In this document: piece by piece, positions 13,354 to 62,416 of the stretch | Position numbering within the stretch: the stretch's first letter is position 1 | Layout: the number at the start of each line of letters is the position of its first letter | Assembly: GCA_000002445.1 (NCBI GenBank) | Contig: AL929603.2 | Coordinates: 320,001-384,000 of the forward strand | Direction: 5' to 3' | Source of the DNA: Trypanosoma brucei | Lineage: Eukaryota | DNA: 64,000 nucleotides | Made by a program: the position numbers and the translations under genes | Notes under the pieces: model-generated | The model's input: the letters and a program-made list of their open reading frames with translations, nothing else | Told to the model about the DNA's origin: nothing | Databases searched by the model: none

Positions 13354-13390
<37 letters not shown>

Positions 13391-14640: not shown

Positions 14641-14686
14641 TAAAATAATAATAATAATACTACTAATAATAAACAATAAAGACAAA

Positions 14687-40260: not shown

Positions 40261-42252
40261 ATGGGTGCCTTTCCGTCTCATGATGCCCCTGAGCTCATAT
40301 ACTCAATGTTAGTTCTGCGTCCATCGACAAATTCTCAGGTTGAGGTTTGCCTGGTGCCTCTTCTGCCGCGTTTCTTCAATGATGGGCACAAAAAGGCGAA
40401 GAAGAAGCTCAATGAACTTCTCGCCAGCAAAGGAGCGCATCAATCGTCACTAGCGGCGTCACTTGCCCCTCGAGCCCCAGCGACTATAGCTCCAGGGAAG
40501 GTTCCAGATCAGGGAATCGGTCACGCCTTAGTGGACTACTTCATTTCCAGTACGGAGGGATCCTTTTTTGTAACCACAAAGGATGCCGTAGTTAGTAAAG
40601 TGGCCATACAAGCGGAGCAAGGTCAAAGGGAGAGGTCTGACATCAGCACTACTGGAGGAAGATCCGCACCAGGTACCGCCTCCACAGGTGAGACACAACC
40701 CTCCAATGCACCATCTCATACGGCGCATCATTCGTCATCCCACCAGGCAATGTCCAACTCTGTGCGGCCGGTGCCATTTGCCGTTTGTATTGTGGATTCG
40801 GATGTCTCCACGGGAACTCCGGGCACCACTGGAGGGTCCGCACAAGCGGCAGCCGCTAAGCACCATCATGTACATGCCAATAATGTTGTCCTTATCAAAG
40901 GGCGGCGGCTGCAACTTGTTGGCTTTATTGCATGTTGTATGGATCGCCCTGTGCGACACATGACCACGGCAAATCCTGTCAAACCACATGGAGCTAGCGG
41001 TGGGGCGGGAGCAACCTCTGGAGAGGGAAAGAAGCAAGGAATCCCTGTCTGTCTGGATGTTATTTTTGATGATACAGAGGCACATGGGTTCCTTACCGAG
41101 TCTGTAGTGTTGTTGGCATCATTTGCCTTCCGCAAGCAATTCTTGAATTGTTGTGCTCTTCACTTTCGGGCCGGGGATCCCGATGTGGAATCATCATTTG
41201 GGCGCCACATGGACCCCTTGCAGCTTCGACTAGTGATGAGGCATGACAACTATCGCATTTTACGCCTGTTTCATAGCCGGTACCCCCTGTTAGACATGGT
41301 CAAAGAGCTTCGCGTAAGCGGGGGCTCGTCGGCCCCGCAGTTCTCTCTCTATGAAAACGATGGAAATGAGGTTGGTTTAGAAGTGACGTTTGGTATGAAT
41401 TTTTTAACGCGGTGGATGCGGTTTGTGGAGAAGATGATGCACGTTGAGACGGTGGTTGGTAACCACATCCGTTGCGGTACCACCGCCATAATGTCGGAGC
41501 GAGATAAACTAATACAGGAGCGCAGGGACAGTGGCGCATTCCTGGAGGAGGAGGAGGATGATGAGCGAATCTTTGGGGGAGCCGTGTACGCCGTGTCGCT
41601 GAGGCGGTGGACTGCTGCAGAGAAGCAGGCGGTTCAGCAACAACAGCAAGTTCCATTGAGTGGAGCATCTCCCATGTATGTGTATCCCACTACCGCTGCT
41701 CCTGGTCAGTACTGGCCACAGATGTCCGTGATGATGGGGCAACCTCCAGGGTGGCCCACTAGTGTTGTTCCTTTGAGTGCTGCTGCTGCTGCACCGACGG
41801 CCGTGGCACCGGTGATTGGGCAACAACAACCATTTGTTATTCAAGCATCAGGGACGCGACCGCAATTGTACTACGCGTCGCCGCAACCGACTGTAAGTGG
41901 GAACGCCACTTTTGTTACCCAGAGCGGTATTCCGATAGTACAGCAAGCAGCGACGGCGTCTCCATTTGGTGTTGCGGCAACACAACCCGCCTCTGGGCAG
42001 CAGATCGTATACGTCATGCAGGGCGCCCAGGCAACTTCCGCTAGTGTTGCAGCCCCTACAGTTTCGGCTATGGCGCCTGGCATGACTCCTCAAGCATTTT
42101 ATTATCCCCAAACTACCGCCTACGCTGTTCCCTACTCTCCATACGGCTTTCAGCAGCAACCACAGCAACAATTGGTAACACAAGCGACTCATATTGGCAC
42201 TCAACAACAACAACAGCAGGTGACATCGGCGGGGCAAGTAGCTCAACAGTAG
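40261..42252 (+). CDS. Member 1 of a three-gene paralogous family. It has an MGxxxS N-terminus (N-myristoylation-type) and a Gln/Pro/Ala-rich C-terminal low-complexity tail.
   Basis: MGAFPSHDAPELIY... Shared blocks with the 47865 and 54878 genes are PVPFAVCIVDSD, GRRLQLVGFIACCMD and FLTESVVLLASFAFRKQF. The C-terminus is poly-Q/A/P. Confidence 0.6.
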   Translation: MGAFPSHDAPELIYSMLVLRPSTNSQVEVCLVPLLPRFFNDGHKKAKKKLNELLASKGAHQSSLAASLAPRAPATIAPGKVPDQGIGHALVDYFISSTEGSFFVTTKDAVVSKVAIQAEQGQRERSDISTTGGRSAPGTASTGETQPSNAPSHTAHHSSSHQAMSNSVRPVPFAVCIVDSDVSTGTPGTTGGSAQAAAAKHHHVHANNVVLIKGRRLQLVGFIACCMDRPVRHMTTANPVKPHGASGGAGATSGEGKKQGIPVCLDVIFDDTEAHGFLTESVVLLASFAFRKQFLNCCALHFRAGDPDVESSFGRHMDPLQLRLVMRHDNYRILRLFHSRYPLLDMVKELRVSGGSSAPQFSLYENDGNEVGLEVTFGMNFLTRWMRFVEKMMHVETVVGNHIRCGTTAIMSERDKLIQERRDSGAFLEEEEDDERIFGGAVYAVSLRRWTAAEKQAVQQQQQVPLSGASPMYVYPTTAAPGQYWPQMSVMMGQPPGWPTSVVPLSAAAAAPTAVAPVIGQQQPFVIQASGTRPQLYYASPQPTVSGNATFVTQSGIPIVQQAATASPFGVAATQPASGQQIVYVMQGAQATSASVAAPTVSAMAPGMTPQAFYYPQTTAYAVPYSPYGFQQQPQQQLVTQATHIGTQQQQQQVTSAGQVAQQ

Positions 42253-44121
42253 ACAGTGGTGGCACCGCGCAATTTTTTTTTTTTGTGGTAACGCCACACC
42301 TTATGGGTGTTGTTATGTACTTGTTGTTATCCCTATTTATTTATTTTTTTATTTATTTATCACGTGTGAAACGGGGTATTTTTGTCATTGCCCCATAACA
42401 CGTGTGAGTGTAAAGCGGCTGTGGCTCTGATTGTTTGATGCCAACGATGGAACATTTGGTGCGTATGTGGGGGGCAAAAAACAAACAAACAAACAAACAA
42501 ATAAACTAATTAACGGAGTAAATACGGGTGGGTCGAGAGGGTGAAGTGGGCAATCGGTAGGAATGGAAAAGGAAAAGAGACGAAGTACGTTTGTACATGC
42601 AACTTGCTTTCACATCATACCGATTCTCTATCCCCCGTAAATGAACTAATAATATAAATAAAATCATTAAAAAGAGAAGAAGCTAGCCAAAAAAAAAAAT
42701 GATATACATATATATATATATATATATATTTGAGGGGGGGGAAAAAAAAGTATATACATAAGTATATATGTGCGGTGGAGGTAAGTGCGTGTACTTCGTG
42801 TATATGTGTTTGTGTTTGTGTTTGTGTACATGCCCCTCTTCCCTCCCTCCCCCTCCCTCCAAAACAAACAAACAAACAAACTTATATATATTTTAGCTAA
42901 CATTGTTGTGAGTAACGAAGTGAAGGGTGCGAATAACGAATGGCCCGTCGTACAGAAGCGCGTGGAGGGGAGGCATATGAAATATATGATTAAGGGAAGG
43001 AACAGGAAAAGGAAAAGGAAAAGGAGGAGGAGGAGGAGGAGGGAAATAAGAAAAAAAAAGAAAAGGAAAAAAAAATAACTCAATGGTGAGATGTGGCGGT
43101 AATATTTCTGCATTGGCATGGGTGTTTGTGTGCATGTGACAGAGGGTTTAAGGTAAAGTTGCTGTTTTTTTTTTCTTCTGTTTTCTTTTATACAAAAGTG
43201 GAAAGGGACAGGAAGGAGAAATTAGTTTTGTGAGAACACCTGTAACATCCGGGCGCGTGCGTTTGTGTGTGTCTGTTTTGTGCGGAAAACAGAAAAAAAA
43301 AGATAATTGAGGTAAATGCACAAATATCAACTAATGGATATCTCACCATCATCATCATTATCATTACCATTTTCATTAGCAACGTTATCGCCATTTTTGG
43401 TAACACCCTCATTTGTAATGGCAGCTGTTTTCACTCTGAGTTGAGTTATTTCCTCCCTTTTCAATGGCGCATATATTAAAACCGCCGTTGCCATCGCCGT
43501 TGCCGTTGCCGCTATCATCATTGCTCTCTTTTTTTTTCTCTCTCTCTCTCTTTCTCTCTCTCTCTGCTTTTCGTAATGAACATTCCTCAAAATGTGATTA
43601 TAGCTGAATATTCGTGTGCCTTTTACCTCAGTGGGTGTCAAGCTTCCGTCACAAGTAAGAAAGTAAAAAAAAAAGAGAAGGAATACATCACTAATTTTCT
43701 TTTTTTCTTTTTTTTTCTTCTTCTTCTTCCTTTTATCGGGGTGGTGATGTTCACGACTTTCCGAATGTTTCTACTTTTTTAAAAAGAAAAAAAAACAACA
43801 ACAATATTTTATGTTCTTCAATCATGTTCTTTTTTTTTTTTCTCTCTCTCTCTCTCTCCCTCTCATCCTCTTTTTCGTTTGTTTTATCTTCTTTCGTTTG
43901 AATTGCTGCTTCTTCATTTATCCTATCTTCTTGTTTGTGTTTGTTTCGGATTTTTGTTTTGTTTGTTTGTTAAACAGAATCACACTTTTCAGCGGTTATG
44001 CATTTTTGTATCTCATTAAATTTCCTCTTTGTCTCCCTTTTGTCTCTCTTTTTCTTTTCTTTTGAATTTGGCTTCAGTACACACTTTATATTAGAACATA
44101 TCATATTACAAACACATACAA

Positions 44122-44156
<35 letters not shown>

Positions 44157-46884
44157 GTATTTATCAACTGAAACGAATTTCCCTTCCATCTTCTTGCGAA
44201 ACTTCCTCACATGGATGCAGCCTTTGTGCGTGGATGATAAATACGTGAATACGTTCGCTTATATTCAATACATAAGCGGGTGCAATTGTCGTTGTTGTTG
44301 TTGTTGTTTGTGCACGCGTACATGAAACATTTTCTCATTATTATGTGCTTATGTTTCCTTTCCTTTCCTTTTCTCTCTCCCTCTTTTCCGCACGCGCACA
44401 CAAACATGCACATGAATATGCGCAACATCTTATTAAATATGATTGCTGGAGTTGTTTTATATTAATAATTTTGGTCCCCTTCCTTTCTCTTCATCTCCTC
44501 CTTGAGTAAATGGATAAATTCCATTTTATACACTATGTAAGGTTTAATATATAAATATATAAATAAATATATATATATATATATATTAGAAAAAATGAAA
44601 GGAAGGAGAAGGCAGCGAAAATAAAAGAATAGAAGAGAAAAGATAGGAGAGGAGAGGAGGAGAAGGGGGGAAAAAAGAAGAAATTAAGAAAAAAAAAAGT
44701 AAAATGTGATAATTATAGAAGAATGAACAGTGGTGTCCGAGCCGGAATGTTAAATAGTCCAATTGATGTGAGAGAGAAAGTAAGAGAAAGAGAGAGAGAG
44801 AGAGAGAAGTCCTAGGATTTCAAACAACATCATTCATGGGATATATAGGAAGCCAAAAAAAGGAACATATTTGTCTTTTGTCTTTTGTCTTCTTTCTTTG
44901 GAAAAAAATAATAATTCATCATTGCCTTATATATATATATATCACTCAGTGATCACGTAAGCTAATGATGAAAAGGGAACAAATGCATTTCATCGGCACC
45001 TCGCCTACGAGAAACCCGGAAGGTTACGCATAACCCGACTCAAGAAATTACGGAATTATCCAGTGGGAAGGAAAAAGCAACAACAACAACAACAACAACA
45101 AAACAACCACATGTAACTCAGGACTCAATACTTTACAAGTGAGGAAAAAAAATAAAAATAATTACAAACTTAAGTTTTTATTGGAGGACCGGCTTTGGAA
45201 GCCGTCATATCGAAAGACCGCCATCTTTAGTTTTCCCCTTTTGTTTGTTTGTTTGTTTGTTTTTGTCCCTCGGAAAGATGAGTTGAAACTCACTTCAACA
45301 ATATCATGTGCCCAATACTTTCCATTACCATAAGAGAGAAAGAGTGAAAGAGAGAGAGAGGGTACTCTAAGTTATTATGCATTGTAGTTATATATTTATA
45401 TGTACATTAATATTAATATTAATATTTTTGTTATTTAATTTATATATTTATATATATTTATATATTCATGTTGGTCTGTTGGTATCCATGCAAAACCGAC
45501 CCGTGCATGAAATGTGGACTTTCATAACATAATATAAACTCAAATTCGGTACTGGTTGCTTGATATTACGGTAACGCATTTACTGCCAAAAGGCGAACAA
45601 TTCTCTGAAGGAAGAAACAAATATAGGCGCATGCATGCAAAAAAAAAAAAACAACAACACAAAAGAGGAAAATATGGCTTCAGGAAAAGAGGCACGGAAG
45701 CGAATCAAGAAGAAAAATAAAAATAAAAAATTAGAAAGTGGGTGGGAAGGGGCGAAGAGAAATATTTCTATTAGTGGTGAATGTTATGTAGATATGCACT
45801 CAGCAGAGACATTAATATAGACATGTGAAAAAATAAGTAGGTGTGTATACAATAAATATATATATATATGTGTGTGTATATGTATGTATATATATGTATA
45901 TAAATGTATATGGTGGTGCGTGTTATAAGAGGAGGAGGTTTAATAGTGTGGGATTTGTACAGTTGTTTCTCTCTTATCAATTCATTCGTCTGTTTCTGTG
46001 TTTTCCTCTCACCATGTATCGATAAGACGGGAATTGTCACCCGAAAGTTTGTTAATGCACTTGTTTTCTTTTTCTTTTTTTTTTTACTTTCTCGCATTTT
46101 CTGTAGCCCAGTGCCACTTCGACTACCATTACTATTATTATTATTATCAGTAGCAGTAATAGTAGTAGTAATATCAATATTTGCTTTGGTGTTATTAAAG
46201 TTGATATGTTATGAGTGTTGTGATTGTGACTGTTAAGATTTAATTTCTTGTTTCCCCTCTGTGAGTGTATTTTTATATATTATTATCATTGTTATTTTAA
46301 TCTGTAATCTCTTTGTTTTATTTATGTCTCTCTCTCTCTCTCCCTCTTTGTTTGTCTCTTTGTTTTACGTCCACTTCTTCAATTCGTTTCTTCTTTCACT
46401 TTCCCTTTTTTTTTTCGTAAAAAAATTGTGTCCCTTCCGTTTAACCACGCAATTTTCTGTTGTGTTTCACTGCATTGCATTCACATTTGACGGGGTTAGC
46501 CGGAAGGGAAGTGAAACACACAAGAAAACAAAAGAAAAAGGTAAAGTAAAACAGAAAAAAAGAGTAAAGGGAAGTTATTTATTTATTTTTATTTTATCTT
46601 CTGTTCGTATTTGTCGTCCGCGCGACATTCGGCGTTTGTTTTTGTGTGCGCGGTTTTGGCTGTTAGTTTCATATCCAGTCGGATCCGTTCAGTGGCGTGG
46701 CTGTGCGAAAAAGTTTAAGGAGGAGGAGGAGGAGGAGGGGAAGGAAAAAGAAGAAAAGAAAAATAAAAGAAGCAAGAACAAAAACAAAAAAGAAAAAGAA
46801 GAGGAAAGAAAAGGGGAAAGGGGCGCGGCTCATCTGCACTTTTACTCCATTGCATTCGCCCTTTAAAAGAAAAAAAAAGAAAAG

Positions 46885-46911
46885 AAGGGAAGGGAAGGGA
46901 AGGGAAGGGAA
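46885..46911 (+). repeat. (GGGAA)n pentanucleotide repeat inside an A/G-rich block (46700-46925)
   Basis: gggaagggaagggaagggaaggga. Confidence 0.6.
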
Positions 46912-47864
46912 AAGAAGGAGGAAACAAAAAAGAAGAAAATTCCTTTATCCCTTTCTTGTGCCATCGTCATCGCAACACTATAAACAATAGGGAACGTGTG
47001 TAAACCTTTTCTCTATCTCTCTCTATCTCTCTCTTTTTTATTATTATTATTTTCTTTGTTCCATACAAACACACAAGCCGACTTAACATAAGGCAGTTGG
47101 GGCGGAAGCCGCGGGCACCACCACTGCTGTAGTTGTTTTTTTTTAGTTTTTCTTTGTTCTTTCGTGTCTTATCTTATTTTAATTTACTCTTGTTTTTTGT
47201 TTTAGTGCTTTTTTTCTTTGATTTATTGTTCTTGTCGGCACCGTTATTGTTATTGTTGGTGCTACTCCCAGTGGTGCATTACTTTGGACGAGGCAAAGTA
47301 GTCCATTTTTTTTTAAAAATTATTCCTCCTCTTTGTTCTCTTTCTTTTATTTAATTCATATTTTTTTTTACTATTTGTTACCGTTATTATTTGTTTATTT
47401 GTTGTTTCCATTTATTTTAATTTACTGTCCTGTCATTCACTTTCTTTACGAAGGTGTAAGTTGGGAAAAAACGTGCGCACGGGAGAGAAACAGAAATACA
47501 AATACATACAGAAGTTAGGGGAGAAATAAATTAAAGCAAAAAAGAAAAAAAAGAGAAGAAACAACAGAACGAAACAGAAGAAAAACGGAAGGGGAAAAAG
47601 AACAGAATTAAGTGACAACACAGTGAGAAGAAGGAGTGAAAGCGAAAAAGGGGGAAAACAAACAGTAACAAAGCAAAAGAAAAAAAGAGTGAAATTCTCT
47701 GCTTAATAAAAAGCAAGTGTATATAACATATATATCTGTATATATATATATATACCTATAATTTGTTTATTTATTTATATATTTGTCTTGTTATTGTTAT
47801 TGTTATTTTTTTTATTTTTGATTACTTTGCCATTGATATATATATATATATATATTTGTTAACA

Positions 47865-49622
47865 ATGGGTGGTATTCCTTCACGCGACGCGCCTACTACA
47901 TTGTTTTGCCTTCGGTACGGCACCCATGAGGTAGGACTCATTCCCCTCGTGTACCGCTACTTTCACAGTGATAACAAGGAGTTGCGAGAGCAGTTTGTGC
48001 GGGTGCGTAATGATCCGAGCATACGCTACAGCTTCATGCGTAGCCCCGAGTATCGTATGGATGAAATACCAAAGAAAGTGTATACAGAGAAGACTCTGGA
48101 CAAGTTCCTTGATGTTATCGATGAATCACTTTACGATTCCACAAGTGCGATGCTCGCAGATGAAGACGCGCCATTCCGGCCCGTTCCTTGCGCCGTTTGC
48201 TTCGTGTATGTTAATGGTCGTGAGGGATCTGATTGTTTTTCATTCTATGGCCGCCGCATTAATATCATTGGTCACTTTGGCTGTTACGAATCCGAGGATA
48301 GGGTTAGTGAAGGCCCATGCCTCCACGCCCGAAAAACTATTTTGAAGGCTGCGGGTGATCGCACGCTGGAGCGTGTTGTTACACTGGCCGCTATGATGCT
48401 CAAAGGGGAATTCTTCCGCGCCGTTCAAACGGTGTGCCCCACGCGGGACCCACTGGCAATGTTAAAGCGCCGACTGAATCCCTTGATACTTGTCGCCTCT
48501 ACACCATGGAACAGTTACCCCACCTTGAAGTTTGTTTACGATACCGCCGTTATTGCATGGGCGTATGGAAAGGAAGTCGTTGAGGCGGATCCGCCGCGCC
48601 TCTCCATGTACGAAATTGAACAAAGCGGTGAGGGTGGCTTATGTATGCGAGTCAGTGGCTCGGTGCTTTTGTGGGCTGTTATGCGCGTGTGTGAGACACT
48701 TACGCTTTCTGCAGTGCGTGGATCCTGGGAGCAGTACGTGCTGGATGACTTTGAGATGCAGCAGAAGGAAAAAATTGTCTCCCAGTGGCTTTCCACAAGC
48801 CCACATGTAAACAGTTTCCTCGGGTCAGAAACATTCACCGACCTCGTACAGAAACGACTGGCTACTCTTCTGCGGGAAGTTGTGCGCGCCCGTGAGACCC
48901 CGACAGAAGACACAACGCTGTGGGGTGAATCACAGGAGTATAGTCATGATGGAAAACTCTACCGTATCTTCAATTCCCCAACTTGCGGCCCTTTCCTTGC
49001 AACTGTGAAGAAGAAGGTGCCTAAGCGGGGAAGCAGCGCCAACACCGGCAATGCAAGTATTACAAGTGCAACTGGTGGTGACTCAGCGAGTGACCGGCGC
49101 TCCAGTGGTGTTCACCTCACGGACTCACCCAGCAGTGGTGGAGAAAATAAATCCCGCAGCTCCGGTCAGGGGAACCCCCGATCCAAAAACAATGGCAACC
49201 AACCTTCTGGTTTCCCCGCACACAACAATGCTGGTCAGCCCCCGCAGTACAAAGATGCTGTCAATAGTGTTCTCCAGTCGCAGTTCGCAACAGCTGCGCA
49301 GCGTGTCGTGTATCAAATGCCGCCTCCCGTCGGCAAAACCTCTCAGGGCCAAGTGTCCGTTTCCCCTCAGATGTCACCGCAGTTTGTACCGATGTTTCAA
49401 ACTGCACCTCCGCCACCCATGCAGCAATTTAGCGTTCCATATGTTGTAATGGCGCCACCCGAGTCACAGCCGCAGCCGCAGCCGCAACCTCAACCTCAAC
49501 CACAACCCCAAATGGGAATGGTGTTCCCAAGCACTGTTGCAAATTATGTGCTTTTGCCAGATGGGCGGGTCGGAATGATCAACGCACCAGCGCCCCCCAC
49601 TATGGGCTTCTGGGGTCAGTGA
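47865..49622 (+). CDS. Member 2 of the MGxxxS/Q-rich paralogous family
   Basis: MGGIPSRDAPTTLFCLRYGTHEVGLIPL... Shared blocks are PVPCAVCFVYVNGREG, GRRINIIGHFGCYE and TLERVVTLAAMMLKGEF. The tail contains a (PQ)n run. The track ORF begins at an upstream non-ATG start; the first ATG is 47865. Confidence 0.6.
   Translation: MGGIPSRDAPTTLFCLRYGTHEVGLIPLVYRYFHSDNKELREQFVRVRNDPSIRYSFMRSPEYRMDEIPKKVYTEKTLDKFLDVIDESLYDSTSAMLADEDAPFRPVPCAVCFVYVNGREGSDCFSFYGRRINIIGHFGCYESEDRVSEGPCLHARKTILKAAGDRTLERVVTLAAMMLKGEFFRAVQTVCPTRDPLAMLKRRLNPLILVASTPWNSYPTLKFVYDTAVIAWAYGKEVVEADPPRLSMYEIEQSGEGGLCMRVSGSVLLWAVMRVCETLTLSAVRGSWEQYVLDDFEMQQKEKIVSQWLSTSPHVNSFLGSETFTDLVQKRLATLLREVVRARETPTEDTTLWGESQEYSHDGKLYRIFNSPTCGPFLATVKKKVPKRGSSANTGNASITSATGGDSASDRRSSGVHLTDSPSSGGENKSRSSGQGNPRSKNNGNQPSGFPAHNNAGQPPQYKDAVNSVLQSQFATAAQRVVYQMPPPVGKTSQGQVSVSPQMSPQFVPMFQTAPPPPMQQFSVPYVVMAPPESQPQPQPQPQPQPQPQMGMVFPSTVANYVLLPDGRVGMINAPAPPTMGFWGQ
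49463..49510 (+). repeat. (CAGCCG/CAACCT)n coding microsatellite giving a (PQ)n run in the 47865-49622 CDS
   Basis: cagccgcagccgcagccgcaacctcaacctcaaccacaaccccaa. Confidence 0.7.
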
Positions 49623-51901
49623 GCGAAGCTTCTGCGCTGCGGAGAGTGGGGGAAGTGTTTTTCTTTTTTTTTTATTTTTTTACTCTTTTTATTTTTATGT
49701 TGTTGGTGTTGTGTTATTATTATTATTATTAATCACTGGCAGTGTAAATATGTGCCTGGTTACGTCGGTATTGGTGTACGTATATAAACATATATATATA
49801 TGTATTCGCTTTGTTACCCGCATTCTTCCACTTCAAGAAGGGCAAAAAGGAAGAGAAATAAAAGAAGAAATGTAACTTTGTGTTTTGGTTTTTATTTGCC
49901 CCCCCCCCTCCCGGTTTCTTCGCTTTGTCTCTCTTCTCCTGCATACACGTGCGCTATTGTGTTGCGGGCCAAAATGGTGTCATTTGTTTGTTTGTTTATT
50001 TGTTCAGTGTTAAAAAGTTTTCACTGCTTCATCATTTGTAGCTGTGGTGGTGCTTCTTTTTTTCTTTTTCTTGTGTGTGCATATATATATATATATATAT
50101 ATTGACGTTGTTTATTTTTGTTCCGTGCGGTGCCGAGTGACCGCTGTTGTTCCTAACTTTTGGGTAGACATCACTAAAACGCATTTCTACTTTGTAGTTG
50201 CTATCGTTGTTGTTTTTTTCAAAGAAAAATATTTGTTTATTATTACTATTTTTTAATAATATCTTCCAGCAACTGAAGAAAAAAAATAATAATTATAATA
50301 ATATATATTATAATTTAATTATTTATTGGGTTTGATAACTTGTTTGGTACATTTTCAAGGAACCAAAATTTTTTTGTAGAATTTATTTTATTTTATTTTT
50401 TTCGTTTTTTCCCCTTAAATTGAAGTAAGAAAGGGGACAAAGAGGAAGAAAAAGAAAATAAAATGAGGGATAAGGTCAAAATAAATAAGGGAGCGTTGAA
50501 ATTAAAGAAAAAAAATATGTATTTTTTCGATACCTCTCATAAGTCTTCTTTAAAAAAAACGAGACCCATGTTATTTAATAAAACAATTCAGAGAAAACGA
50601 AATGAGAGAAGAGGGGTAAAAAAAAGAGAAAGATACAAAACGCCATTTCATTGATGGCAATGTGTTGAGTGAATGGGACATTGCATTTTTATATTTTTTT
50701 TAAAAAATATATATATTAAATGAATGATAGTTAGCGAAATGAAGCAGAAAGAAAAAAAAGAAAAGAGAAGAGGAGGTAGAGGGAAGAGATGATATTAATA
50801 ACCGACCATTGTAAGAAAAGTGAAGAAAAAGGAAAAAGAAAAGGCATTGTGTTATTGCAGAAAAGACACAAACATGATGCCGTGTAGAGGAGGAAAATAT
50901 ACTCCAAAATAATAATTAAAAAAAAAAGGAAGAAGCGCTGTGGCACCTACGCAATCACATTTATAAATACCTAAATATTTAAATACAAGACAAATCAAGC
51001 GACACATGTATATTTGTATTTAATGTATTTATAATATATTTGTTTATTTATATATACGTATACATACATACACGAATGAACAAATAAACACAGAAATATA
51101 TATATATATATATATATTTATTTATATTTATATTTATATATATACACGCATACTTAATAACAAATACCCCAGAGGAACATGGTTTCACGATTGTCAGCCT
51201 TTTCCTCGTTATTTTATCTTTTTTTTTTTTTACTACCAAAATACTGAGAACCCCCGCCGATTTTGTATTTCTTTTTTAAAATTTCATGTTTACCATCGTC
51301 ATGATGTTTATTTATCACTGCTACTAATTATTATTGTTGTTGTTGTTGGTGTTGGTGCTGTTGGTTTTTTTTATTTTCTTTCGTTGTAGCTGCGTAACGC
51401 AAATCGTTTTGTTTGTTGATTGTGCCCCCATTTTAATATATTTTCTTTTTTCCCCTTTTTTACACTGTTTTTTTTTGTTTGTGCTCCCATAATTTTTTTC
51501 AATGATTGTTTTTTATTTTTAAATTTCTTGTTATTATTGTTGTTGTTACTATTTTTTCTAAATTTATTTTGCGGACATATTTATATTTCAATATTTAATG
51601 CGTCCATTATAATTATTATCACTGGTTTCATTATCACCTCGTCTTGTTTTTTGTCTTCGTCATGAATCTGCGGACGTATTTCTCATAATGTCCAAAATAA
51701 ATAAATAATAGTAATAATATTAATATATATATATTAATATTGTGTGATGCGTATTTCTATCTCTTATTTTCAACTTGTAAAGAGAAGGAAAAAGAAAAAA
51801 AAAGGCAACAAATCTGTAACATGCATTACTCCTCGTAGTAGTAGTAGTACTAGTAGTTTTTTTTCCCCCAACCAGCTCCCGTTTTTGGCCGTTATTTTTA
51901 A

Positions 51902-51903
<2 letters not shown>

Positions 51904-51956
<53 letters not shown>
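51904..51956. repeat. (TTA)n microsatellite, about 17 units
   Basis: ttattattatt... is uninterrupted for about 53 bp. The 51744 and 51770 ORFs on opposite strands decode it as poly-I/poly-N artefacts. Confidence 0.8.
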
Positions 51957-52355
51957 TTGCTCCTCATCTACATCTTTTGTCGTTGTTATTGATGTCTTTT
52001 TTTTTTGTCTCGTGGAGGGCAGCAAAATAATAATTAAAAAAAAAATAATAATTTTAAAAGAAAAAACAAAAACACAACACAGAGCAAAAAGGAAAAAAAA
52101 AGAAAGAAAATGGTAGCGGGGAATCGTGTTGGGGTTTAAGCGAGAAAAAAAAAATAATAATTCCAAGCAACAGCACCAACAATATTAGTAGTAGTAATAA
52201 AAACAAACAAAAAACAAATATCTCTTTTTTTTTTGTCTTCTTAAAAAGTTGTGTGTATAAAAAGTTCCTGCACGCGGATGTGGACCTCCTTCCTCGTCCC
52301 ACTTCTCGTATTTTATTACTATTATTATTGTTATGATTGCCATCATATATATTAC

Positions 52356-52393
<38 letters not shown>

Positions 52394-54877
52394 CCTGCAC
52401 ATATGCTCCGAAACATATATGAATAAATACAAAAAAAACTAAATATTTATTATATATTTATACATAATTGTTTTCATCATGTTTTAACACTTCCAATATA
52501 AATGTGAGTGATTTTATTTTATTTTTTTGACGTGTACGTGTACGTGTATTCAATTTCCTTCTAACGAAATGAAATGAATGCCCTTGAAAAAGAGAGAGAA
52601 GTGAAATAAAAAAAACAAAAAAATTGAAGTAAATGGGAGGGCTGAAGGGGTCGTGTACTCCTAATTTTAATTTTAATTTCTTTTGTTTTGTGACTTTTTG
52701 TTGTTGTTTTCGTCGTTTTCTTTCCTTTTCTTTTTTTTGTTAAAGCACCCGACGCCGCGTGTAATGACGCAGTGGGAAGCAGTGGTGTAAACAATTCCAA
52801 GAGAGCAAAGGAGTTGAAAAGTGGAGCAACAATAAATAAATATAATTTGTAAAATTATTGTGTGACGAAACAAAACAAAGCACAACAAAACGGAAATAAA
52901 ATATATATGTATGTAGATATATATATATATATATATTGAGTAAATGAGTGAATACCCCTCTTTTTTTTTATTTTATTTTTTTGAGTGTGAGGAGAGAGGA
53001 GAAGGAATATTAATGAAGGAGCGGATTGTTTTCTAGTTAAACAAAAAAAATTATATAGAAACTGGTAGAAAACACACGGGATGGAAATTGAGCGGTAAAA
53101 ACTTGAGAAGAGGACGAAGTTTTAAGAAGGATATGCGAGCGATGTACATTTCATTTTATTTTTTGATTCTCTTTTATTACTATTATTATTTTTACTTTAC
53201 TTTTTTTTCTTTTTCTTTCTCTTTTTATATCTTATATGATTATTAATATTTTGCCTCTTTTTAATAGAGGTTCATGCAGCGCATTCGCCTTCGTTGGTGC
53301 AGTTCTTCATGATCAATTCGTAAATCTCAACCCGCCGCGTCACTTTTTTCCTCCCATTTTGTTGTGTTTGATTTGAAAGGGGGGAATGGGGTAAAAATTA
53401 GAAGGAGAGCCATTGTGTTGTTCATTCGCAAGTGTGTTGTTATTAAAATTCAACTTATATATATTTCTTTATTTTTCTGTATATTTTTAACGCATTTTTA
53501 CTTTTAAATAAATAAATAATATATATATATATATATATGACTATTGATTTTCTCCTCCTTATTTGGTCGTTGTTGATACTTGTATTTCTTTTTTTTTTTT
53601 TGTGTGTGTGGTTTGTTCGTAAGTTTAACTCATCCTCTGTTACCATTACATATGTGTGTTTGTGTGAAGGAGTGCGATAGAGCGAGAAGGAAACAGAGAG
53701 TGTGTTTGTGTGCATTTGAAAGAAAGACAAAAATAAAAAGCAAAGCGAAGAGGGTGAGAGTATATATATATATTATTATTATTAAACCAACAATAAAAGA
53801 GGGAAAGTGGGGGAAGGTAATGGAAGTGTGAAATGTTGTCGTGCATGAAATTTCGAAGATATGCGTACGATCTAATTTTATGTATTTGTGTTTGTTTACA
53901 CGCGTGCGTGACATAAGTAAATGGAAGTGTGGGATGGGACATGGACAAATAATTGCCATTTGAAATATTCGTTAATTGCATCCCACCCTGTCCAATTCCT
54001 TTTGTGGCGCTCCGTGTCCTGCTCAACTCCATCCCCTTTATTTTATTTCTTTTTTGTCGTTTATTTTATTTTATTTCAGGCCCATTGTCAATTTCATTTA
54101 TGCTCTACGTGTTAGCTCTACTAATGACTTTGCAATGTCTTCATGTTTCATAACCCTTATTGGTTTTATCATTTTTACTGAATCACTTACTCGCTGTACA
54201 TCACTCTGTTTCTTCTTCTGTTCTTATGTTTTTTCTTTTTTGTTTATTTATTTATTTATGAAACAACAACAACTACAATCATGAACAGGTCTTAAAGTCA
54301 CTCCAGGGGTGTGAAAAAAGACAAAGTAAAAGAGGGAAAGAGAAATAGGTCTTTTCGCTCTTTTTTTTACTTTTACTTTTGTTTATTTTTCTTTTTCCAT
54401 TTCCATAAAGGAAACTGTCATTTATACGAGAAAGACAGGGGAAACCCAAATAAAGGAGGGAAAAGAAACGTGATCATCGAAAAACAAAATAATAAATCTT
54501 TTTGTCATTGTTTCTGCCTAACCTTTAGCGAGGTTATATAACGCTAAAGTGCAGAATCAGAGAAGAGGCTGAGGGGGAAAAAAAAAGAAAAAAAATACCG
54601 AAACGGGGAAGACAAAAGAAAAGAAAGATAATAATAATAATAATAACAAGAACAAGAACAAAAACAGGGAAGCAAGAGAACCGAGTGAGGAAAAGGGTAA
54701 CTTTGTGACAGGAAGGACCTTACATCAAAGGGGAAACACCTTTAGAGAAGAAAACGTTGCTGTAATTTCGCATTTGCCACACGGAAAAGTGTAGCAGACA
54801 AGAAAACGAAACAAGCAACAACTACGAGCACAAACACAACAAACGGCAAACAGCGACGGTGACGGTGACGAACAAAT

Positions 54878-56872
54878 ATGGGAGGTGCGCCTTCTCGGGA
54901 GGCGACAGTTGTGTACTCGTATCTGCGAGGTACGTATGAAATTGGCCTCATTCCCCTTACAAGTGCTTTCTTTGGCCGGCCGTCAGGACGGGGGGAACAT
55001 GAAGGGGAAAATGTGCTACGGGGGCATTTCTTACAGATGCGGGAGGATCTCTTCGCGGCCTGTACACTCCCAACCCGAAACAAAGTGCTCTCATGGACAG
55101 AAATCGTGCCCAATCGATTTACGGGGGAGGACCTTGACGCGTTTTTGGAAATTGTGGACAAGCGGCTCTACCCAACAAATGCGGCAATGGTAGCAGATAA
55201 AAATTCTCCACTTCTCCCGGTCCCATGTGCTGTTTGTCTTGTCTGCAAAGATGGTCGGGAGCGCCGTGGCAGTTTTCGCTGGCGCGGGCGGAACATTGTC
55301 ATCATCGGTTACTTTGGATGCATGGATGAAAAGCTTGATGCGGCTTTCAAAACAGAGAAACGCACGCCACGCCAGGGGATGTACAGCATCACTGCCGCTG
55401 TATTTCCCTCTATTGGTGATCGTACGTTTGACCGCGTTCTTGCCTTAGCACCAGTGATGCTTCGGGGGCAGTTTGTGGGATCTGTGTTGCAACTCCGTAG
55501 GGGAGGAGGGGAATTCGCAACGCCCTTGAGTGAGCGTGGGGAAATGGTTGATGTCTCTAGTGAGGCTCCTTCGCTCGGAGCGGGAATTGGTGGAGTGGTA
55601 GGGCAATCAGATGGATTGATTCATGAGGATTCTGCAGTTGACAGCGCCTTCGAAATGTTCGTGGAGCGCGTCTCCCAGATGTCTGTATTCGTTGAGGTGG
55701 TCTCGGATAACTACTCGTCACTGAAGTCTCTAGTGGAAAATGTTGCCTTCATCCAGATTCATACACAGGCGGAACCTAAACAGTGTACGCTTGATCTTCC
55801 TCCAATCGTTCAGAACGCCTTTAATCGCACTACAACTGCGAGCAGTTGCGAGAAGAAAGCTGACGCGGAGGGTCACCATGCAGAAAAGTCGCCTCCACAA
55901 CGTTCATCTGCCATGGAACAGGGGTCTTCTTGTTGCACCGTGCAAGGAGTAAGCTGCTCGTTGGAGCGCGATGATTTAACCGATCTGTCCAGTGTGGAGC
56001 CTGAAGGTTCATCTCACTTAAGTAAAGTGCCAACGGAGGATGGTGGTAGTTTTCACTTCTGTACAGAGATAGTTCGTGTTCATTTCAACGAGAGATATGT
56101 GTCCCTAGCCATCCAGTGGCTCTCAAGTTTCTTCCGAAAACCAACCTTGCTTGAGAATGGTTATTGGGTACACTACTGCCTGAAAAAGGAAGAGGAAGTG
56201 ATACGCAGAATACTCTGCCATCGCGATACTATTGTCTCCGGTTGGCGAACGTCTCACCCCGAACTCGCTAATCAATACATGGGTGACGGCACGGACAAAC
56301 TACTGGAGCACGTACGGATCCTTCAGCACGAATTACAACAAGCCCGCAAGGCTGCAGAAGAACCTACACTGCGTAAAAAAGCCAGTACGCCTCCCACTCT
56401 GCCGTGTCCGAATACCACTTCAATGGCAGTGTTGGCACCACCCCCTCCGCCTCATGTGATGCCGTACGCCGTGCCTCCTCTTCCGTCACCGGTTTATTTT
56501 GTTCAACAGCAACCTGTGGGAAACCCCATGTTTGTGTCGTTGCTTCCTTTTCAGCAAGTGCAGCAGGTTCCACAAGTGCAACAGATCCCACAATTTCAGC
56601 AGGTGCCGCAAATTCAGCCACTGCAACAGATTTCGCATGTGCAGCAGATCCCTCAATTGCAGCAAACCCAACCGGTACAGTCGATATCGCATGTTCAGCA
56701 GATTTCGCATGTGCAACCGATTCATCAAGTGCAGCAAATCTCACATGTGCAACCGATGCCATTGTACCACCTCCAACCACCTGAATTACAACAGCCCTCG
56801 GTTTGTTATCTTCCCTTTGGGGATGGAGGAGCTCTACCCCCAAGTTATGTCATTCCAAGCTCGCTGTCGTAG
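54878..56872 (+). CDS. Member 3 of the MGxxxS/Q-rich paralogous family, with an 18-bp periodic hexapeptide repeat in its tail
   Basis: MGGAPSREATVVYSYLRGTYEIGLIPL... Shared blocks are PVPCAVCLVCKDGRE, GRNIVIIGYFGCMD and TFDRVLALAPVMLRGQF. The tail reads QQIPQFQQVPQIQPLQQISHVQQIPQLQQTQPVQSISHVQQISHVQPIHQVQQISHVQP. Confidence 0.6.
   Translation: MGGAPSREATVVYSYLRGTYEIGLIPLTSAFFGRPSGRGEHEGENVLRGHFLQMREDLFAACTLPTRNKVLSWTEIVPNRFTGEDLDAFLEIVDKRLYPTNAAMVADKNSPLLPVPCAVCLVCKDGRERRGSFRWRGRNIVIIGYFGCMDEKLDAAFKTEKRTPRQGMYSITAAVFPSIGDRTFDRVLALAPVMLRGQFVGSVLQLRRGGGEFATPLSERGEMVDVSSEAPSLGAGIGGVVGQSDGLIHEDSAVDSAFEMFVERVSQMSVFVEVVSDNYSSLKSLVENVAFIQIHTQAEPKQCTLDLPPIVQNAFNRTTTASSCEKKADAEGHHAEKSPPQRSSAMEQGSSCCTVQGVSCSLERDDLTDLSSVEPEGSSHLSKVPTEDGGSFHFCTEIVRVHFNERYVSLAIQWLSSFFRKPTLLENGYWVHYCLKKEEEVIRRILCHRDTIVSGWRTSHPELANQYMGDGTDKLLEHVRILQHELQQARKAAEEPTLRKKASTPPTLPCPNTTSMAVLAPPPPPHVMPYAVPPLPSPVYFVQQQPVGNPMFVSLLPFQQVQQVPQVQQIPQFQQVPQIQPLQQISHVQQIPQLQQTQPVQSISHVQQISHVQPIHQVQQISHVQPMPLYHLQPPELQQPSVCYLPFGDGGALPPSYVIPSSLS
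56560..56770 (+). repeat. Coding tandem repeat with an 18-bp period, about 11 degenerate units of (S/P)HVQQI, inside the 54878-56872 CDS
   Basis: Units are directly visible: cagcagatttcgcatgtg / caaccgattcatcaagtg / cagcaaatctcacatgtg ... Confidence 0.7.
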
Positions 56873-59800: not shown

Positions 59801-61314
59801 ATTCCTACTACCGCTATCATTATTATTATTATTCATACTATTCCTATTGCTACTACTATGATTATTATTATTATTACTATTATTATTATTGTTATTGTTA
59901 CTATCATTACCCCTCGTTTGTATTTATACTCATGAGTACAAATACATCCACTATTCACACATTTATATATATTTATATATTTACATATATATATTTATAT
60001 ATAAATATATTTCTGCTTGTGTGCTCGTTTCTTGTGTACTGCACTGGAATAGGAGGAAAACAAAAAAAAGCTGCAGATAAAGTGAAGAAAAGAAATTTTT
60101 TTTATTATGGAGGGGAGAGGATAAAAATAGCAGTGATCATAATGAGAACAATTTTTTTTTCCTAACAGAACAAAGCAAAAAAAAAAGTGCGTAATTAGGA
60201 ACAGTGAAGAGGAGGGGGGGGGAAAATAAATAAATAAATAATAATAATAAATGAACAGCACCGCATGAAAACGTGTGAAATGTTGGTGTCTTTTTCTTCC
60301 TCCTTTTTTGGTAAAGGAGTGTTTCCACGTGTTCCATACTTCCTTTCCAATATTTTTCTTGCTTTTTCTTTTTTTTTCTTTTCTTTTCTATCCTATTTTA
60401 TGGTTCATGTTTGTTTTTTTCATTTTCATTTTCATTTTCTCTCTTTCTCTCTTTCTCTCTCCCTCTGCGTGTGTGCGCTCATTTGTGTGTTTGGACTTGG
60501 ACTTGGACTTGGATATGACGTTATTTTAAGTGCTTTTTTTTCTTTCTTTTCTTTTTTCTTTTAAAATATTTGGTTGGTTGCGGTGTTTTTTCGTTTTGAT
60601 AAATTGGGGCTTAAGTACGAAAAAAAAAAAGGATGACGATCAAGTAAGTGAATGAATTAACAAAAGAAAATAAAATGAAAATAAAATAAAATGTATCAAA
60701 CAATTTTAAAAAAAATGATCGGAATGGTGAATTCTTTTTCTTTTTTTTTTCTTGATATATACTTCACTTCGATTTCTTATTTTTATATCAGTTATTATTC
60801 ATACAAAAAAAAAGTGAAAATAAAAATGTCGAAAGGAGGAACCCTGAATGACGGGAGCAACTTCCGTGATTTTGTCTTTTTTTTTCCCACTTTTCGGGAA
60901 CAACAACAACAAAAAGGAGAACAGAAAATGAAAAAAATGAAAAATAAAATGCAAGTGATAGTGATAATGATGATGATGATGATGATAAACAATAGTGATC
61001 ATTAGATCTTTGATTTTGAATTTGAAAAGGAGAAAGAATTGGTAATTGCCAAGCAAAAGGTTGGGACATTGCCGGTTCAAGGGGGAGGAATAACAAAAGT
61101 AAGTTAAATTCAAATGAAAAAAAAAAGGAGGGGGGAAAAAGTTGAAAGGAAAAATATTGGAAACGTATCCACAAAGTTTTTTTTTGAAATTTCCTCTTCA
61201 TTTATCTTTTCACCATTTTATTTAATTTTTATTTTGTATCATTACTTCCTTTCTGTTGCCTCATTATCTCATCTCACATACACGTTTCTACTTTTCTGTA
61301 TTTTCATATTTAAA

Positions 61315-61352
<38 letters not shown>

Positions 61353-62376: not shown

Positions 62377-62416
<40 letters not shown>

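Follow-up and report, generated by a model that had tools for sequence, protein, structure and literature searches.

What fills the two long spacers that separate three tandem paralogues, here P1, P2, and P3, on chromosome 1 of Trypanosoma brucei? The 64,000-nt stretch analyzed (the window) corresponds to bases 320001-384000 of TREU927 chromosome 1, as established by exact protein matches. The offset of 320000 was fixed by a coding sequence in Kolev Table S3 (360261-362252, window 40261-42252) and checked at six published spliced-leader (SL) sites (39493, 39496, 40180, 40216, 46500, and 54289), each directly preceded by AG; six-digit positions below are chromosomal, all others those of the window. 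Transcript ends were taken from the SL and poly(A) tables of Kolev 2010, which describe procyclic forms, the sole bloodstream-form source being the P3 3'UTR annotation. Considered together, the evidence indicates that the spacers are very probably transcribed UTRs of the P1, P2, and P3 mRNAs and not empty or gene-bearing DNA.

Length and composition of the spacers

The three proteins share MGxxPS N-termini and Q/P-rich tails. Because the ends of their coding sequences are exact, spacer 1 (P1-P2) can be delimited as 42253-47864 (GC 0.34) and spacer 2 (P2-P3) as 49623-54877 (GC 0.30). The preliminary description of this DNA had reported two gene-free spacers of more than 5 kb; they measure exactly 5612 and 5255 nt, whereas the other 16 gaps separating + strand genes of the window span 139-2628 nt, and a third gene-free stretch of >7.1 kb (56873-64000, GC 0.31) lies 3' of P3. 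The repeats it had named, (TA)n, (CT)n, (CAA)n, and (GGGAA)n, were located as (TA)n, (TC)n, (CAA)n, and (GAAGG)n, and its A/G-rich block, T-rich block, and two GC-richer islands are borne out by their base composition (Table 1). It was also correct that the spacers hold only low-complexity ORFs, which translate simple repeats, the longest having 201 aa (46261-46866). All repeats inside the spacers belong to low-complexity families. Purine and pyrimidine tracts of at least 9 nt occur at three to four times their frequency in dinucleotide shuffles, with the observed count reached in 0 of 200; since the same excess is present in the shorter AT-rich spacers of the window, composition is typical and length alone exceptional.

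Table 1. Features of the P1-P3 locus in window coordinates
Feature	Position	Strand	Details
P1 CDS, Tb927.1.1420	40261..42252	+	ORF; 663 aa, N-terminus MGAFPS; exact match XP_001218844
P1 3'UTR, maximal extent	42253..46305	+	4053 nt; 24 mapped poly(A) positions, Kolev 2010 PAS list 362650-366305
Main procyclic P1 poly(A) cluster	43708..43933	+	30/53 tags, 20 at 43713; 3'UTR 1.46-1.68 kb
Excised intergenic piece, spacer 1	46306..46499	+	194 nt; tracts 46321-46361, 46383-46418; acceptor AG 46498-46499
Probable 5' leader, assigned to P2	46500..47864	+	1365 nt; SL map; holds A/G block, T block, both GC islands
P2 CDS, Tb927.1.1470	47865..49622	+	585 aa, N-terminus MGGIPS; 1758 nt = Tb927.1.1470 length
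P2 3'UTR	49623..54151	+	about 4.5 kb; terminal PAS cluster 54113-54151; PAS list
Nine UA(U)6 RBP10 motifs, P2 3'UTR	49673, 50247, 50394, 50520, 50692, 51550, 52520, 52974, 53157	+	
Excised intergenic piece, spacer 2	54152..54288	+	137 nt; PPT 54209-54241; acceptor AG 54287-54288; SL site 374289
P3 5'UTR	54289..54877	+	589 nt, ATG-free; nearest upstream ATG 54281
P3 CDS, Tb927.1.1500	54878..56872	+	664 aa, N-terminus MGGAPS
P3 3'UTR	56873..64000, continues past window	+	PAS list and annotation; 7.86-7.89 kb
(TA)n, spacer 1	42702, 44122, 44547, 45852, 47720, 47836		
(TC)n, spacer 1	43537, 43841		
(CAA)n, spacer 1	45078-45111		
(GAAGG)n, spacer 1	46884-46911		
A/G block	46700-46925		81% purine
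T block	47130-47450		57% T
GC islands	46620-46700; 47085-47130		GC 0.53; GC 0.63

Transcript ends within the spacers

SL and poly(A) maps, from which UTR bounds had been expected to emerge, place nearly all spacer sequence in mature mRNAs, and the published procyclic data divide spacer 1 into three parts. The spacer finding is therefore real but ordinary for T. brucei, since public transcript maps already display these UTRs. The reading of spacer 1 as a 3'UTR holds for the 4053 of its 5612 nt that can belong to P1, the 'alt3UTR' model of which extends to 366305 (Kolev 2010), and fails for the final 1365 nt, which would form the 5' leader of P2. Even the P1 portion is mostly short in procyclic forms: the main poly(A) site at 43713 gives a 3'UTR of 1461 nt, with minor sites as far as 4053 nt, and only a minor isoform includes the distal 2.4 kb. 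Internal priming is unlikely at the main cluster because the sequence 3' of it is T-rich, not A-rich; the distal positions are mostly single tags, several of which adjoin A-rich runs and may reflect internal oligo(dT) priming. The maximal P1 3'UTR contains 77 ATGs (19 per kb).

The most distal P1 poly(A) site (46305) lies 195 nt 5' of the SL site at 46500; the median PAS-SAS distance is 142 nt (Kolev 2010). By tract scan and SL map, spacer 1 has 14 strong polypyrimidine tracts with an AG after them, of which the pair at 46321-46418 alone is used; spacer 2 has 10, one of them used, and there the sequence downstream of the terminal P2 poly(A) sites is not A-rich. SL tags fall at 366494 (1), 366500 (130), 366507 (10), and 366512 (1), and position 366500 (window 46500) was filed under the 'unlikely' ORF Tb927.1.1460, not P2 (Kolev 2010). 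Contrary to that assignment, the absence of ATGs downstream suggests that the site serves P2. The leader so defined holds 0 ATG against 14.1 expected (minimum 6 in 500 shuffles) and lies within the longest ATG-free tract of the window (46327-47864, about 1540 nt), which starts 173 nt 5' of the SL site and ends at the P2 ATG. Real start codons adjoin each of the five longest ATG-free gaps on the window's + strand. In T. congolense, 0 ATG occur in the 1158 nt available 5' of P2, a lower bound on that region's length (at least 1158 nt). On this assignment the A/G block, T block, and GC islands, the features singled out in the preliminary description, would all belong to the P2 5' leader and not to a 3'UTR.

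Less likely is an SL-capped, polyadenylated non-coding RNA of 0.4-1.3 kb made from 46500 besides or instead of the P2 leader, with 43934-46305 perhaps giving rise to another. Such an RNA would resemble the 'novel transcripts' of Kolev, one of which, Tb1.NT.24, offers a parallel 5' of P1 (SL site 39493, 233 tags; poly(A) sites 39742-40126). The 142 SL tags at 46494-46512 exceed the 43 for P1, yet procyclic ORF read density is lower for P2 than for P1, and 11 poly(A) tags between 46875 and 47783 (three at 46875, eight at 47521-47783) mean that some RNAs from 46500 may stop before the P2 coding sequence. The sequence downstream of the sites at 47714-47783 is not strongly A-rich, whereas the tags at 46875 and 47521-47537 adjoin A-rich runs (7-9 of the following 10 nt are A). 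The T-rich block at 47130-47450 is followed by AG at 47452-47453, a possible undetected proximal P2 acceptor, but the procyclic map of Kolev 2010, which covers the stage of highest P2 expression, places no further SL site between 46512 and the P2 ATG, and none within 43934-46305. Nor would a non-coding RNA give a reason for 1365 nt devoid of ATG or for their persistence in T. congolense.

Stage regulation of the paralogues

The proposal that these are long 3'UTRs of regulated mRNAs stands for two of the three paralogues: P2 and P3 show opposite stage regulation, P2 being procyclic-enriched and P3 bloodstream-enriched, while neither clear stage regulation nor RBP10 binding is evident for P1. 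In the Fadda table, whose two stage-specific count blocks we take to be bloodstream followed by procyclic, P2 has 48 vs 493 raw reads and P3 328 vs 191; P3 is listed as 'up' alongside PGKC and ESAG genes. In the RBP10 pull-down, P2 has ratios of 8.5 and 10.6 (about 9.5-fold) and is flagged 'Yes - PCF', against 2.1 and 2.2 for P1 and 2.0 and 2.0 for P3 (about 2-fold). The 3'UTRs of P1, P2, and P3 carry 1, 9, and 1 UA(U)6 motifs, respectively, where 3.1 were expected for P2 (count reached in 2 of 200 shuffles) and 4.4-4.7 for P3; this distribution agrees with the published RBP10 binding and the opposite regulation of P2 and P3, and the motifs may well cause the regulation of P2.

The P3 3'UTR is annotated at 376873-384732, with poly(A) tags extending to 384760; the median T. 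brucei 3'UTR length is 388 nt. Long 3'UTRs with abundant purine and pyrimidine tracts are enriched among bloodstream up-translated mRNAs. A 2951-nt fragment of the P3 3'UTR (57717-60668) was positive in a bloodstream-form reporter (MPRA) screen, with 10-14 reads vs 0 (log2FC 3.7, FDR 0.052).

The proposed mechanism would have RNA polymerase II transcribe the entire + strand unit, with one dominant processing node per spacer at which a polypyrimidine tract directs SL addition at the following AG, coupled to polyadenylation about 140-195 nt further upstream. Spacer 1 would thereby yield the P1 3'UTR (at most 4053 nt, with the proximal site at 1461 nt preferred in procyclic forms), a discarded piece of 194 nt, and a P2 leader of 1365 nt free of upstream ATGs; spacer 2 would yield 4.5 kb of P2 3'UTR, 137 discarded nt, and a P3 leader of 589 nt. 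This layout predicts two P1 mRNAs, of about 3.5 and 6.1 kb, a P2 mRNA of about 7.6 kb, and a P3 mRNA of about 10.4 kb. The long UTRs combine purine tracts rich in A, pyrimidine tracts rich in U, (UA)n, and AU-rich elements into mosaics that may act as RNA-binding-protein platforms and regulate each paralogue individually. RBP10 binds the P2 3'UTR, with its nine motifs, in bloodstream forms, and the P2 mRNA is procyclic-enriched; the P3 3'UTR, depleted of UA(U)6 but with many purine and pyrimidine tracts, would favor bloodstream-form expression, and P1 would be expressed nearly constitutively.

Conservation and comparison with known systems

The extra length might instead be neutral, a microsatellite expansion of ordinary UTRs in which neither length nor composition encodes regulation. 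The low-complexity repeats, the composition shared with the shorter AT-rich spacers of the window, and the lack of primary-sequence conservation across species beyond low-complexity matches are what such drift would leave. Length is nevertheless kept at about 5 kb in both spacers of T. vivax (5081 and 5216 nt) and after P2 in T. cruzi (spacers of 2369 and 5707 nt) and T. congolense (at least 6966 nt 3' of P2), beside neighboring spacers of 0.4-1.5 kb, which suggests that spacer length itself may be under selection. The placement of UA(U)6 is paralogue-specific, and its enrichment on the P2 side recurs in T. congolense (9 vs 2.9 expected; 0 of 100 shuffles), with no UA(U)6 after P2 in T. cruzi. 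As RBP10 binds only the P2 mRNA among the three, a P3 UTR fragment scored in the reporter screen, and the leaders are purged of ATG, neutrality is judged improbable.

Trypanosome snoRNA clusters occur between protein genes, and small structured RNAs, whether such a cluster or another non-coding RNA, could be processed from the polycistron within the spacers. The GC-richer islands stand out, and some 120-nt spacer windows fold better than shuffles (z to -5.6), but the windows that fold strongly consist of (UA)n or of purine tracts paired with pyrimidine tracts, and both islands fold no better than shuffles (z -2.0 to +2.2). No Rfam family reached its gathering score in the whole window; matches at E<=1 were low-complexity only and far under threshold, the best 'snoRNA' scoring 27 bits vs 100. 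A C/D box scan of both strands gave no candidates, and the ATG-free tract makes a UGAUGA C box impossible there. Given also the absence of cross-species sequence conservation, this alternative, raised by the preliminary description, is very improbable. Its other alternative, diverged genes, here taken as real fast-evolving genes among the 'hypothetical, unlikely' chromosome 1 ORFs such as Tb927.1.1460, is still more so: TREU927 protein accession numbering has space for about six extra proteins between P1 and P3, and the 201-aa ORF encloses a strong SL site, but the spacer ORFs all translate simple repeats, tblastx against the syntenic spacers of T. vivax, T. congolense, and T. cruzi found no conserved ORF (few low-complexity fragments only), the first ATG of the 201-aa ORF (46324) is missing from the mature RNA because it lies upstream of SL site 46500, no other ATG occurs before the P2 start, and Tb927.1.1430 and Tb927.1.1510 (sample IDs) are absent from the Fadda supplementary files, including a read-count table listing their neighbors.

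The UTR reading has close precedents. 'Unlikely' ORFs have been placed within neighboring transcripts before (Tb927.1.3060-3100, Kolev 2010; Tb927.1.2540 and Tb927.1.4590, Jensen 2009), and Tb927.1.1460 and the other spacer ORFs of this class similarly sit in UTRs of flanking conserved genes, although Tb927.1.1460 was retained by Kolev as owner of SL site 366500. Spacers 1 and 2 match the unused polypyrimidine tracts in long UTRs of Clayton 2019 (Figure 3), and Tb1.NT.24 the 'processed RNA with no ORF' case; the locus exemplifies that scheme without differing from it in kind. The ZC3H20/ZC3H21/ZC3H22 locus (Tb927.7.2660-2680) likewise has three diverged paralogues arrayed in tandem within a single polycistron; each has a 3'UTR of >4 kb, they are expressed at different life-cycle stages, and they carry 2, 5, and 9 UA(U)6 RBP10 sites, compared with 1, 9, and 1 here. 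It differs in that the P1-P3 proteins have no CCCH zinc fingers and no Pfam domain, that P3 is bloodstream-enriched whereas ZC3H20/21/22 are all later-stage proteins, and that reporter dissection of the P1-P3 UTRs consists of one fragment in a genome-wide screen only. P3 resembles the long, tract-dense 3'UTR class of bloodstream up-translated mRNAs (Trenaman 2024; Bishola Tshitenge 2022) in being bloodstream-enriched, with a fragment positive in the same screen; its tract densities, 5.6 per kb for A-rich purine and 6.9 per kb for U-rich pyrimidine tracts, follow our own definition, whereas the authors' class uses a FIMO motif density of >20 per kb, and spacer 1 differs in belonging to P1, which shows no such regulation. 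The RBP10 mRNA itself has a similarly long 3'UTR, >7 kb against 7.9 kb for P3 (Trenaman 2024; Bishola Tshitenge 2022).

Transcript ends and composition of the long spacers

Published maps of spliced leader (SL) and poly(A) sites (PAS), which derive from procyclic forms and were read here from the tables of Kolev et al. (2010), place nearly all of the long spacers separating the tandem paralogues P1, P2, and P3 within mRNAs. The preliminary description, which had taken them for unusually long UTRs, was thus largely right. Of five proteins looked up, four have exact sequence matches in T. b. brucei TREU927 chromosome 1, namely P1, P3, a Hikeshi/OPI10 homologue, and a PP2A scaffold subunit. The entries for Tb927.1.1380 (1722-nt "PP2A regulatory subunit") and Tb927.1.1470 (1758-nt hypothetical) in Fadda et al., together with CDS 360261-362252 of Tb927.1.1420 (Kolev et al., 2010), fix the offset between window and chromosome at 320000 and identify the three paralogues; as an independent check, each of the published SL sites tabulated below lies directly after an AG.

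Coordinates of features at the locus (window numbering unless stated)
Feature	Position	Strand	Remarks
AT-rich spacer	12059-14686		2.6 kb, GC 0.34
AT-rich spacer	15989-18097		2.1 kb, GC 0.31
ATG-free tract before P1	39427-40260	+	834 nt
Tb1.NT.24 SL sites	39493, 39496	+	255 tags
Tb1.NT.24 poly(A) sites	39742-40126	+	
P1 SL sites	40180, 40216	+	43 tags (proximal sites)
P1 CDS	40261-42252	+	Tb927.1.1420; XP_001218844
Spacer 1 (P1-P2)	42253-47864		GC 0.34
P1 poly(A) sites	42650-46305	+	24 positions
Main P1 poly(A) cluster	43708-43933	+	30 of 53 tags
Polypyrimidine tracts	46321-46361, 46383-46418	+	precede SL site 46500
Tb927.1.1460	46324-46866	+	annotated "hypothetical, unlikely"
SL site after P1	46500	+	130 tags, 12 more nearby
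Putative P2 leader	46500-47864	+	1365 nt
Purine block	46700-46925		81% R
T block	47130-47450		57% T
P2 CDS	47865-49622	+	Tb927.1.1470
Spacer 2 (P2-P3)	49623-54877		GC 0.30
Terminal P2 poly(A) cluster	54113-54151	+	
P3 SL site	54289	+	5'UTR 589 nt
P3 CDS	54878-56872	+	Tb927.1.1500; XP_001218852
18-nt imperfect tandem repeat	56555-56751	+	within P3 CDS
Gene-free stretch 3' of P3	56873-64000		>7.1 kb
P3 3'UTR reporter fragment	57717-60668		2951 nt
P3 3'UTR hairpin	63444-63521		-35.7 kcal/mol, z = -3.96
P3 3'UTR, annotated	376873-384732 (chromosome)	+	
Last P3 poly(A) site	384760 (chromosome)	+	past window end

All sizeable ORFs listed for the whole window lie on the + strand, in keeping with a trypanosomatid polycistronic unit. 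The P1, P2, and P3 proteins are about 20% identical and share an N-terminus of the form MG(G/A)xPS; a Pfam search of the three returned no domain. For P2, a mechanical ORF call begins at TTG 47763, and the real start is ATG 47865, since the MGGIPS N-terminus that follows from it is conserved in T. congolense, T. vivax, and T. cruzi and since a 585-aa protein is called from the same ATG in the T. equiperdum assembly. MGxxxS is the N-myristoylation consensus, which the starts of all three proteins fit; their C-termini are Q/P-rich, and the tandem repeat in the P3 CDS encodes a repeated QQ(I/V)(S/P)(H/Q)VQ-type C-terminal motif. No papers were found under the UniProt or XP accessions.

The two spacers have the dimensions first described, 5612 and 5255 nt against 139-2628 nt for the other intergenic distances in the window (n = 16), and a third gene-free stretch follows P3. 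The microsatellites, purine block, T block, and two GC-richer islands of the preliminary description were likewise all found. Purine or pyrimidine tracts of at least 9 nt are 3-4 times commoner in the spacers than in dinucleotide shuffles; the same excess occurs in shorter AT-rich spacers elsewhere in the window, so that length is the sole unusual property of the long ones. Two of the shorter AT-rich spacers match them in tract composition, and the first of these, at 12059, corresponds to the 3'UTR mapped for Tb927.1.1240, whose poly(A) tags extend to 2440 nt. Repeat finding within spacer 1 recovered only purine-tract, pyrimidine-tract, and (TA)n families and no non-simple repeat, while blastn among the three spacers gave no similarity beyond simple tracts and no paralogy, indicating that the spacers were not duplicated recognisably together with the genes. 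A dispersed repeat or mobile element of RIME, ingi, or SIDER type is not supported, these searches within spacer 1 and between the spacers having yielded no multi-copy or shared non-simple sequence.

The mapped poly(A) positions of P1 correspond to 3'UTRs of 398-4053 nt (Kolev et al., 2010). Within the main cluster, position 43713 alone carries 20 tags and defines a 3'UTR of 1461 nt; the distal sites are minor, with 1-2 tags each, and Tb927.1.1420 is included among genes with an alternative 3'UTR, reaching chromosome position 366305. For P2, the terminal cluster gives a 3'UTR of about 4.5 kb (maximum 4529 nt), and for P3 the sites extend to 7888 nt (Kolev et al., 2010), in accord with the annotation used by Trenaman et al. 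(2024). The distances from terminal PAS to the next SL site, 195 nt after P1 and 138-176 nt after P2, may be set beside the T. brucei median of 142 nt (Kolev et al., 2010). Maximal 3'UTRs of 4.05 kb (P1), 4.5 kb (P2), and 7.9 kb (P3) far exceed typical values for the genome (a median of 388 nt and a mean of 622 nt), the main procyclic P1 isoform having 1.46 kb; in all three, the PAS lies far downstream with no SL site mapped in between in procyclic forms. Judged by the genomic sequence downstream of each site, the main P1 and terminal P2 clusters are credible, because no A-runs follow them; about a dozen single-tag sites adjoin A-rich runs (including 43050, 43786, 45144, 45638, 45712, 46875, and 47536) and could be products of internal priming. 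The assignment of spacer 1 to 3'UTR holds in part: P1 poly(A) sites reach 4053 nt into it, but one quarter appears to be P2 5' leader, and the dominant procyclic P1 isoform is shorter.

The long UTRs of this locus are already in public data sets and annotation. Its transcript ends have been public since 2010 and RBP10 binding of Tb927.1.1470 since 2017, and a 7.9 kb 3'UTR is annotated for Tb927.1.1500. T. brucei is known for UTRs of such length, and finding them here is in itself of little consequence.

The probable ATG-free leader of P2

SL site 46500 has been filed under the "unlikely" ORF Tb927.1.1460 (Kolev et al., 2010). The only ATG of that ORF, at 46324, lies 176 nt upstream of the splice site and is hence missing from the mature RNA, so that Tb927.1.1460 is untranslatable as annotated. 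The 1540 nt from 46327 to the P2 start codon contain no ATG, and no other ATG-free tract on the two strands of the 64 kb window is as long. The 1365-nt leader itself contains none against 14 expected (minimum 6 in 500 dinucleotide shuffles), and the ATG density of the adjoining P1 3'UTR is 19 per kb. Each of the five longest ATG-free gaps on the + strand of the window runs up to a real start codon (P2, P1, the PP2A subunit, kinesin, and P3), and the P3 gap starts 8 nt before the mapped P3 SL site; ATG-free tracts therefore mark 5'UTRs in this genome, and as a by-product the extent of a 5'UTR can be read from sequence alone. The available sequence upstream of the T. congolense P2 orthologue, 1158 nt, likewise lacks ATG throughout, against about 22 expected. 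No further SL site was mapped in procyclic forms between the 46500 sites and the P2 start codon (Kolev et al., 2010), and the ATG-free tract, from which continuity to the CDS is inferred, argues that P2 mRNA begins at 46500. The reassignment of this site to P2 by such a tract, which would give P2 a leader well above the T. brucei 5'UTR median of 82-130 nt (maximum about 2500 nt), is new, as is the conservation of the tract in T. congolense. Tb927.1.1460 is better regarded as belonging to the putative P2 leader and can be retired as a gene; "unlikely" ORFs inside a neighbour's UTR have been recognised at other chromosome 1 loci (Jensen, 2009; Kolev et al., 2010).

Given the 11 poly(A) tags that fall inside the leader (Kolev et al., 2010) and the high number of SL tags, a short RNA may be produced as well. 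Upstream of P1, a second ATG-free tract runs up to the start codon and encloses the "novel transcript" Tb1.NT.24 of Kolev et al. (2010), whose SL tags outnumber those at P1's own proximal sites; ATG-free stretches of similar length, 764 nt in T. vivax and 828 nt in T. cruzi, precede P1 there. The pattern suggests that the Tb1.NT.24 SL site also gives a long-leader P1 mRNA, or that the region yields a conserved ORF-less RNA. The leader from 46500 has more SL reads than either flanking paralogue and has been AUG-free since at least the T. brucei/T. congolense split; the Tb1.NT.24 region shares these properties. It is conceivable, if rather improbable, that it and the Tb1.NT.24 region form a dual-use class in which early processing would generate abundant short capped polyadenylated RNAs and read-through very long scanning-competent leaders, the choice setting the stage-specific amount of P1 or P2 protein.

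Paralogue-specific 3'UTRs and stage regulation

The P2 3'UTR contains 9 copies of UA(U)6, the recognition motif of RBP10, against 3.1 expected (2 of 200 shuffles); that of P1 contains one, as do 7.1 kb of that of P3 (4.4 expected), so that by motif content only P2 qualifies as an RBP10 target. This paralogue-specific distribution across the three 3'UTRs is a new observation. Mugo and Clayton (2017) defined targets by at least 3-fold enrichment in both of two pull-downs; Tb927.1.1470, with ratios of 8.5 and 10.6, belongs to the 260 mRNAs they scored as bound and bears the flag "Yes - PCF", its 3'UTR being noted as "unclear", while Tb927.1.1420 (2.1 and 2.2) and Tb927.1.1500 (2.0 and 2.0) fell below that threshold. 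The raw counts of Fadda et al. form two stage-specific blocks, taken here as bloodstream and then procyclic, and read 48/493 for P2, 328/191 for P3, and 414/834 for P1; set against neighbouring genes, which rise 2.3-3.8-fold between the blocks through library size alone, they indicate that P2 is procyclic-enriched and P3 bloodstream-enriched. Tb927.1.1500 has also been reported as "up", beside PGKC and ESAG genes (Nilsson et al., 2010), and a fragment of its 3'UTR scored positive in a reporter screen in bloodstream forms (FDR 0.052); no P1 or P2 fragment is among the matches listed from the table of that screen (Trenaman et al., 2024). A high density of purine and pyrimidine tracts in long 3'UTRs has been linked to up-translation in bloodstream forms (Trenaman et al., 2024). 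P2 is thus an RBP10 target, P3 is bloodstream-enriched, and P1 is roughly constitutive.

The closest analogue is the ZC3H20/21/22 locus, likewise three tandem paralogues, expressed at staggered stages, with 3'UTRs of more than 4 kb that carry 2, 5, and 9 RBP10 sites. The present locus provides a clean second example of that pattern, in which old tandem paralogues are distinguished by their UTRs, and a convenient natural experiment on how UTR content sets stage specificity. Multi-kb 3'UTRs are frequent on mRNAs for RNA-binding proteins and kinases (Clayton review), consistent with the presence of fragments of P1, P2, and P3 alike in the yeast two-hybrid list for RBP10, where P2 carries the mark "1.down" and is placed under "interact with MKT1 or CFB1"; P3 was classed "Gene Expression" in an overexpression screen and as "cytoplasm (reticulated)". 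All three proteins have been found in screens for post-transcriptional regulators and may represent an unstudied family of such regulators.

Conservation and alternative readings of the spacers

The three-paralogue arrangement is older than the split of the sampled Trypanosoma species. Beside the T. brucei lengths, the P1-P2 and P2-P3 spacers measure 5081 and 5216 nt in T. vivax and 2369 and 5707 nt in T. cruzi, and in T. congolense at least 6966 nt follow P2 without P3; neighbouring spacers at these three loci are 0.4-1.5 kb. UA(U)6 is enriched after P2 in T. congolense (9 against 2.9 expected; 0 of 100 shuffles), weakly so in T. vivax, and not in T. cruzi, while the P2 3'UTR of T. equiperdum, at 97-98% identity, is too close for an informative comparison. 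Neutral expansion, by which the spacers would simply have lengthened, is weakened by this conservation of length, by the paralogue-specific motif content, and by the purging of ATG; it may still hold for the distal P1 UTR.

Other contents proposed for the spacers were not supported. When the three spacers were compared by blastn (word 9) with their syntenic counterparts in T. vivax, T. congolense, and T. cruzi, all matches were short and of low complexity, the best in roughly colinear position being 106 nt at 74% identity, so that primary sequence is not conserved beyond simple tracts and no islands of conservation emerged; the two GC-richer islands fold no better than shuffles. Very diverged genes, a suggestion of the preliminary description, are opposed by tblastx against the same spacers, which detected no hidden coding, and by the position of the Tb927.1.1460 ATG upstream of the SL site. 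Its suggestion of snoRNA clusters is not supported, nor is any other known RNA family, as Rfam at gathering score matched nothing in the whole window and a simple C/D box scan produced no candidates. At E ≤ 1, Rfam returned only sub-threshold low-complexity matches in 42253-64000, and outliers in a sliding-window scan of folding z-scores over that interval reflect (UA)n or purine/pyrimidine self-complementarity. The P3 3'UTR contains a hairpin in which a U-rich arm pairs with an A-rich arm, none of 200 shuffles being as stable; it gave weak palindromic "miRNA" matches in Rfam on both strands and is probably incidental purine/pyrimidine pairing.

In L. mexicana, where high GC makes ORF lists uninterpretable, a P2-like gene (981 aa) is the sole called gene in 22.9 kb (1-22946 of the locus), and a tblastn search (E ≤ 1e-5) of the 10 kb to each side detected no distinct gene resembling P1 or P3. 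Either Leishmania may share the gene-poor setting or the L. mexicana gene table may be incomplete. At the T. cruzi locus, an ATG-free tract of 1326 nt (16653-17978) precedes the P3 orthologue and one of only 218 nt precedes P2, so that in this species the very long leader seems to be carried by a different paralogue.
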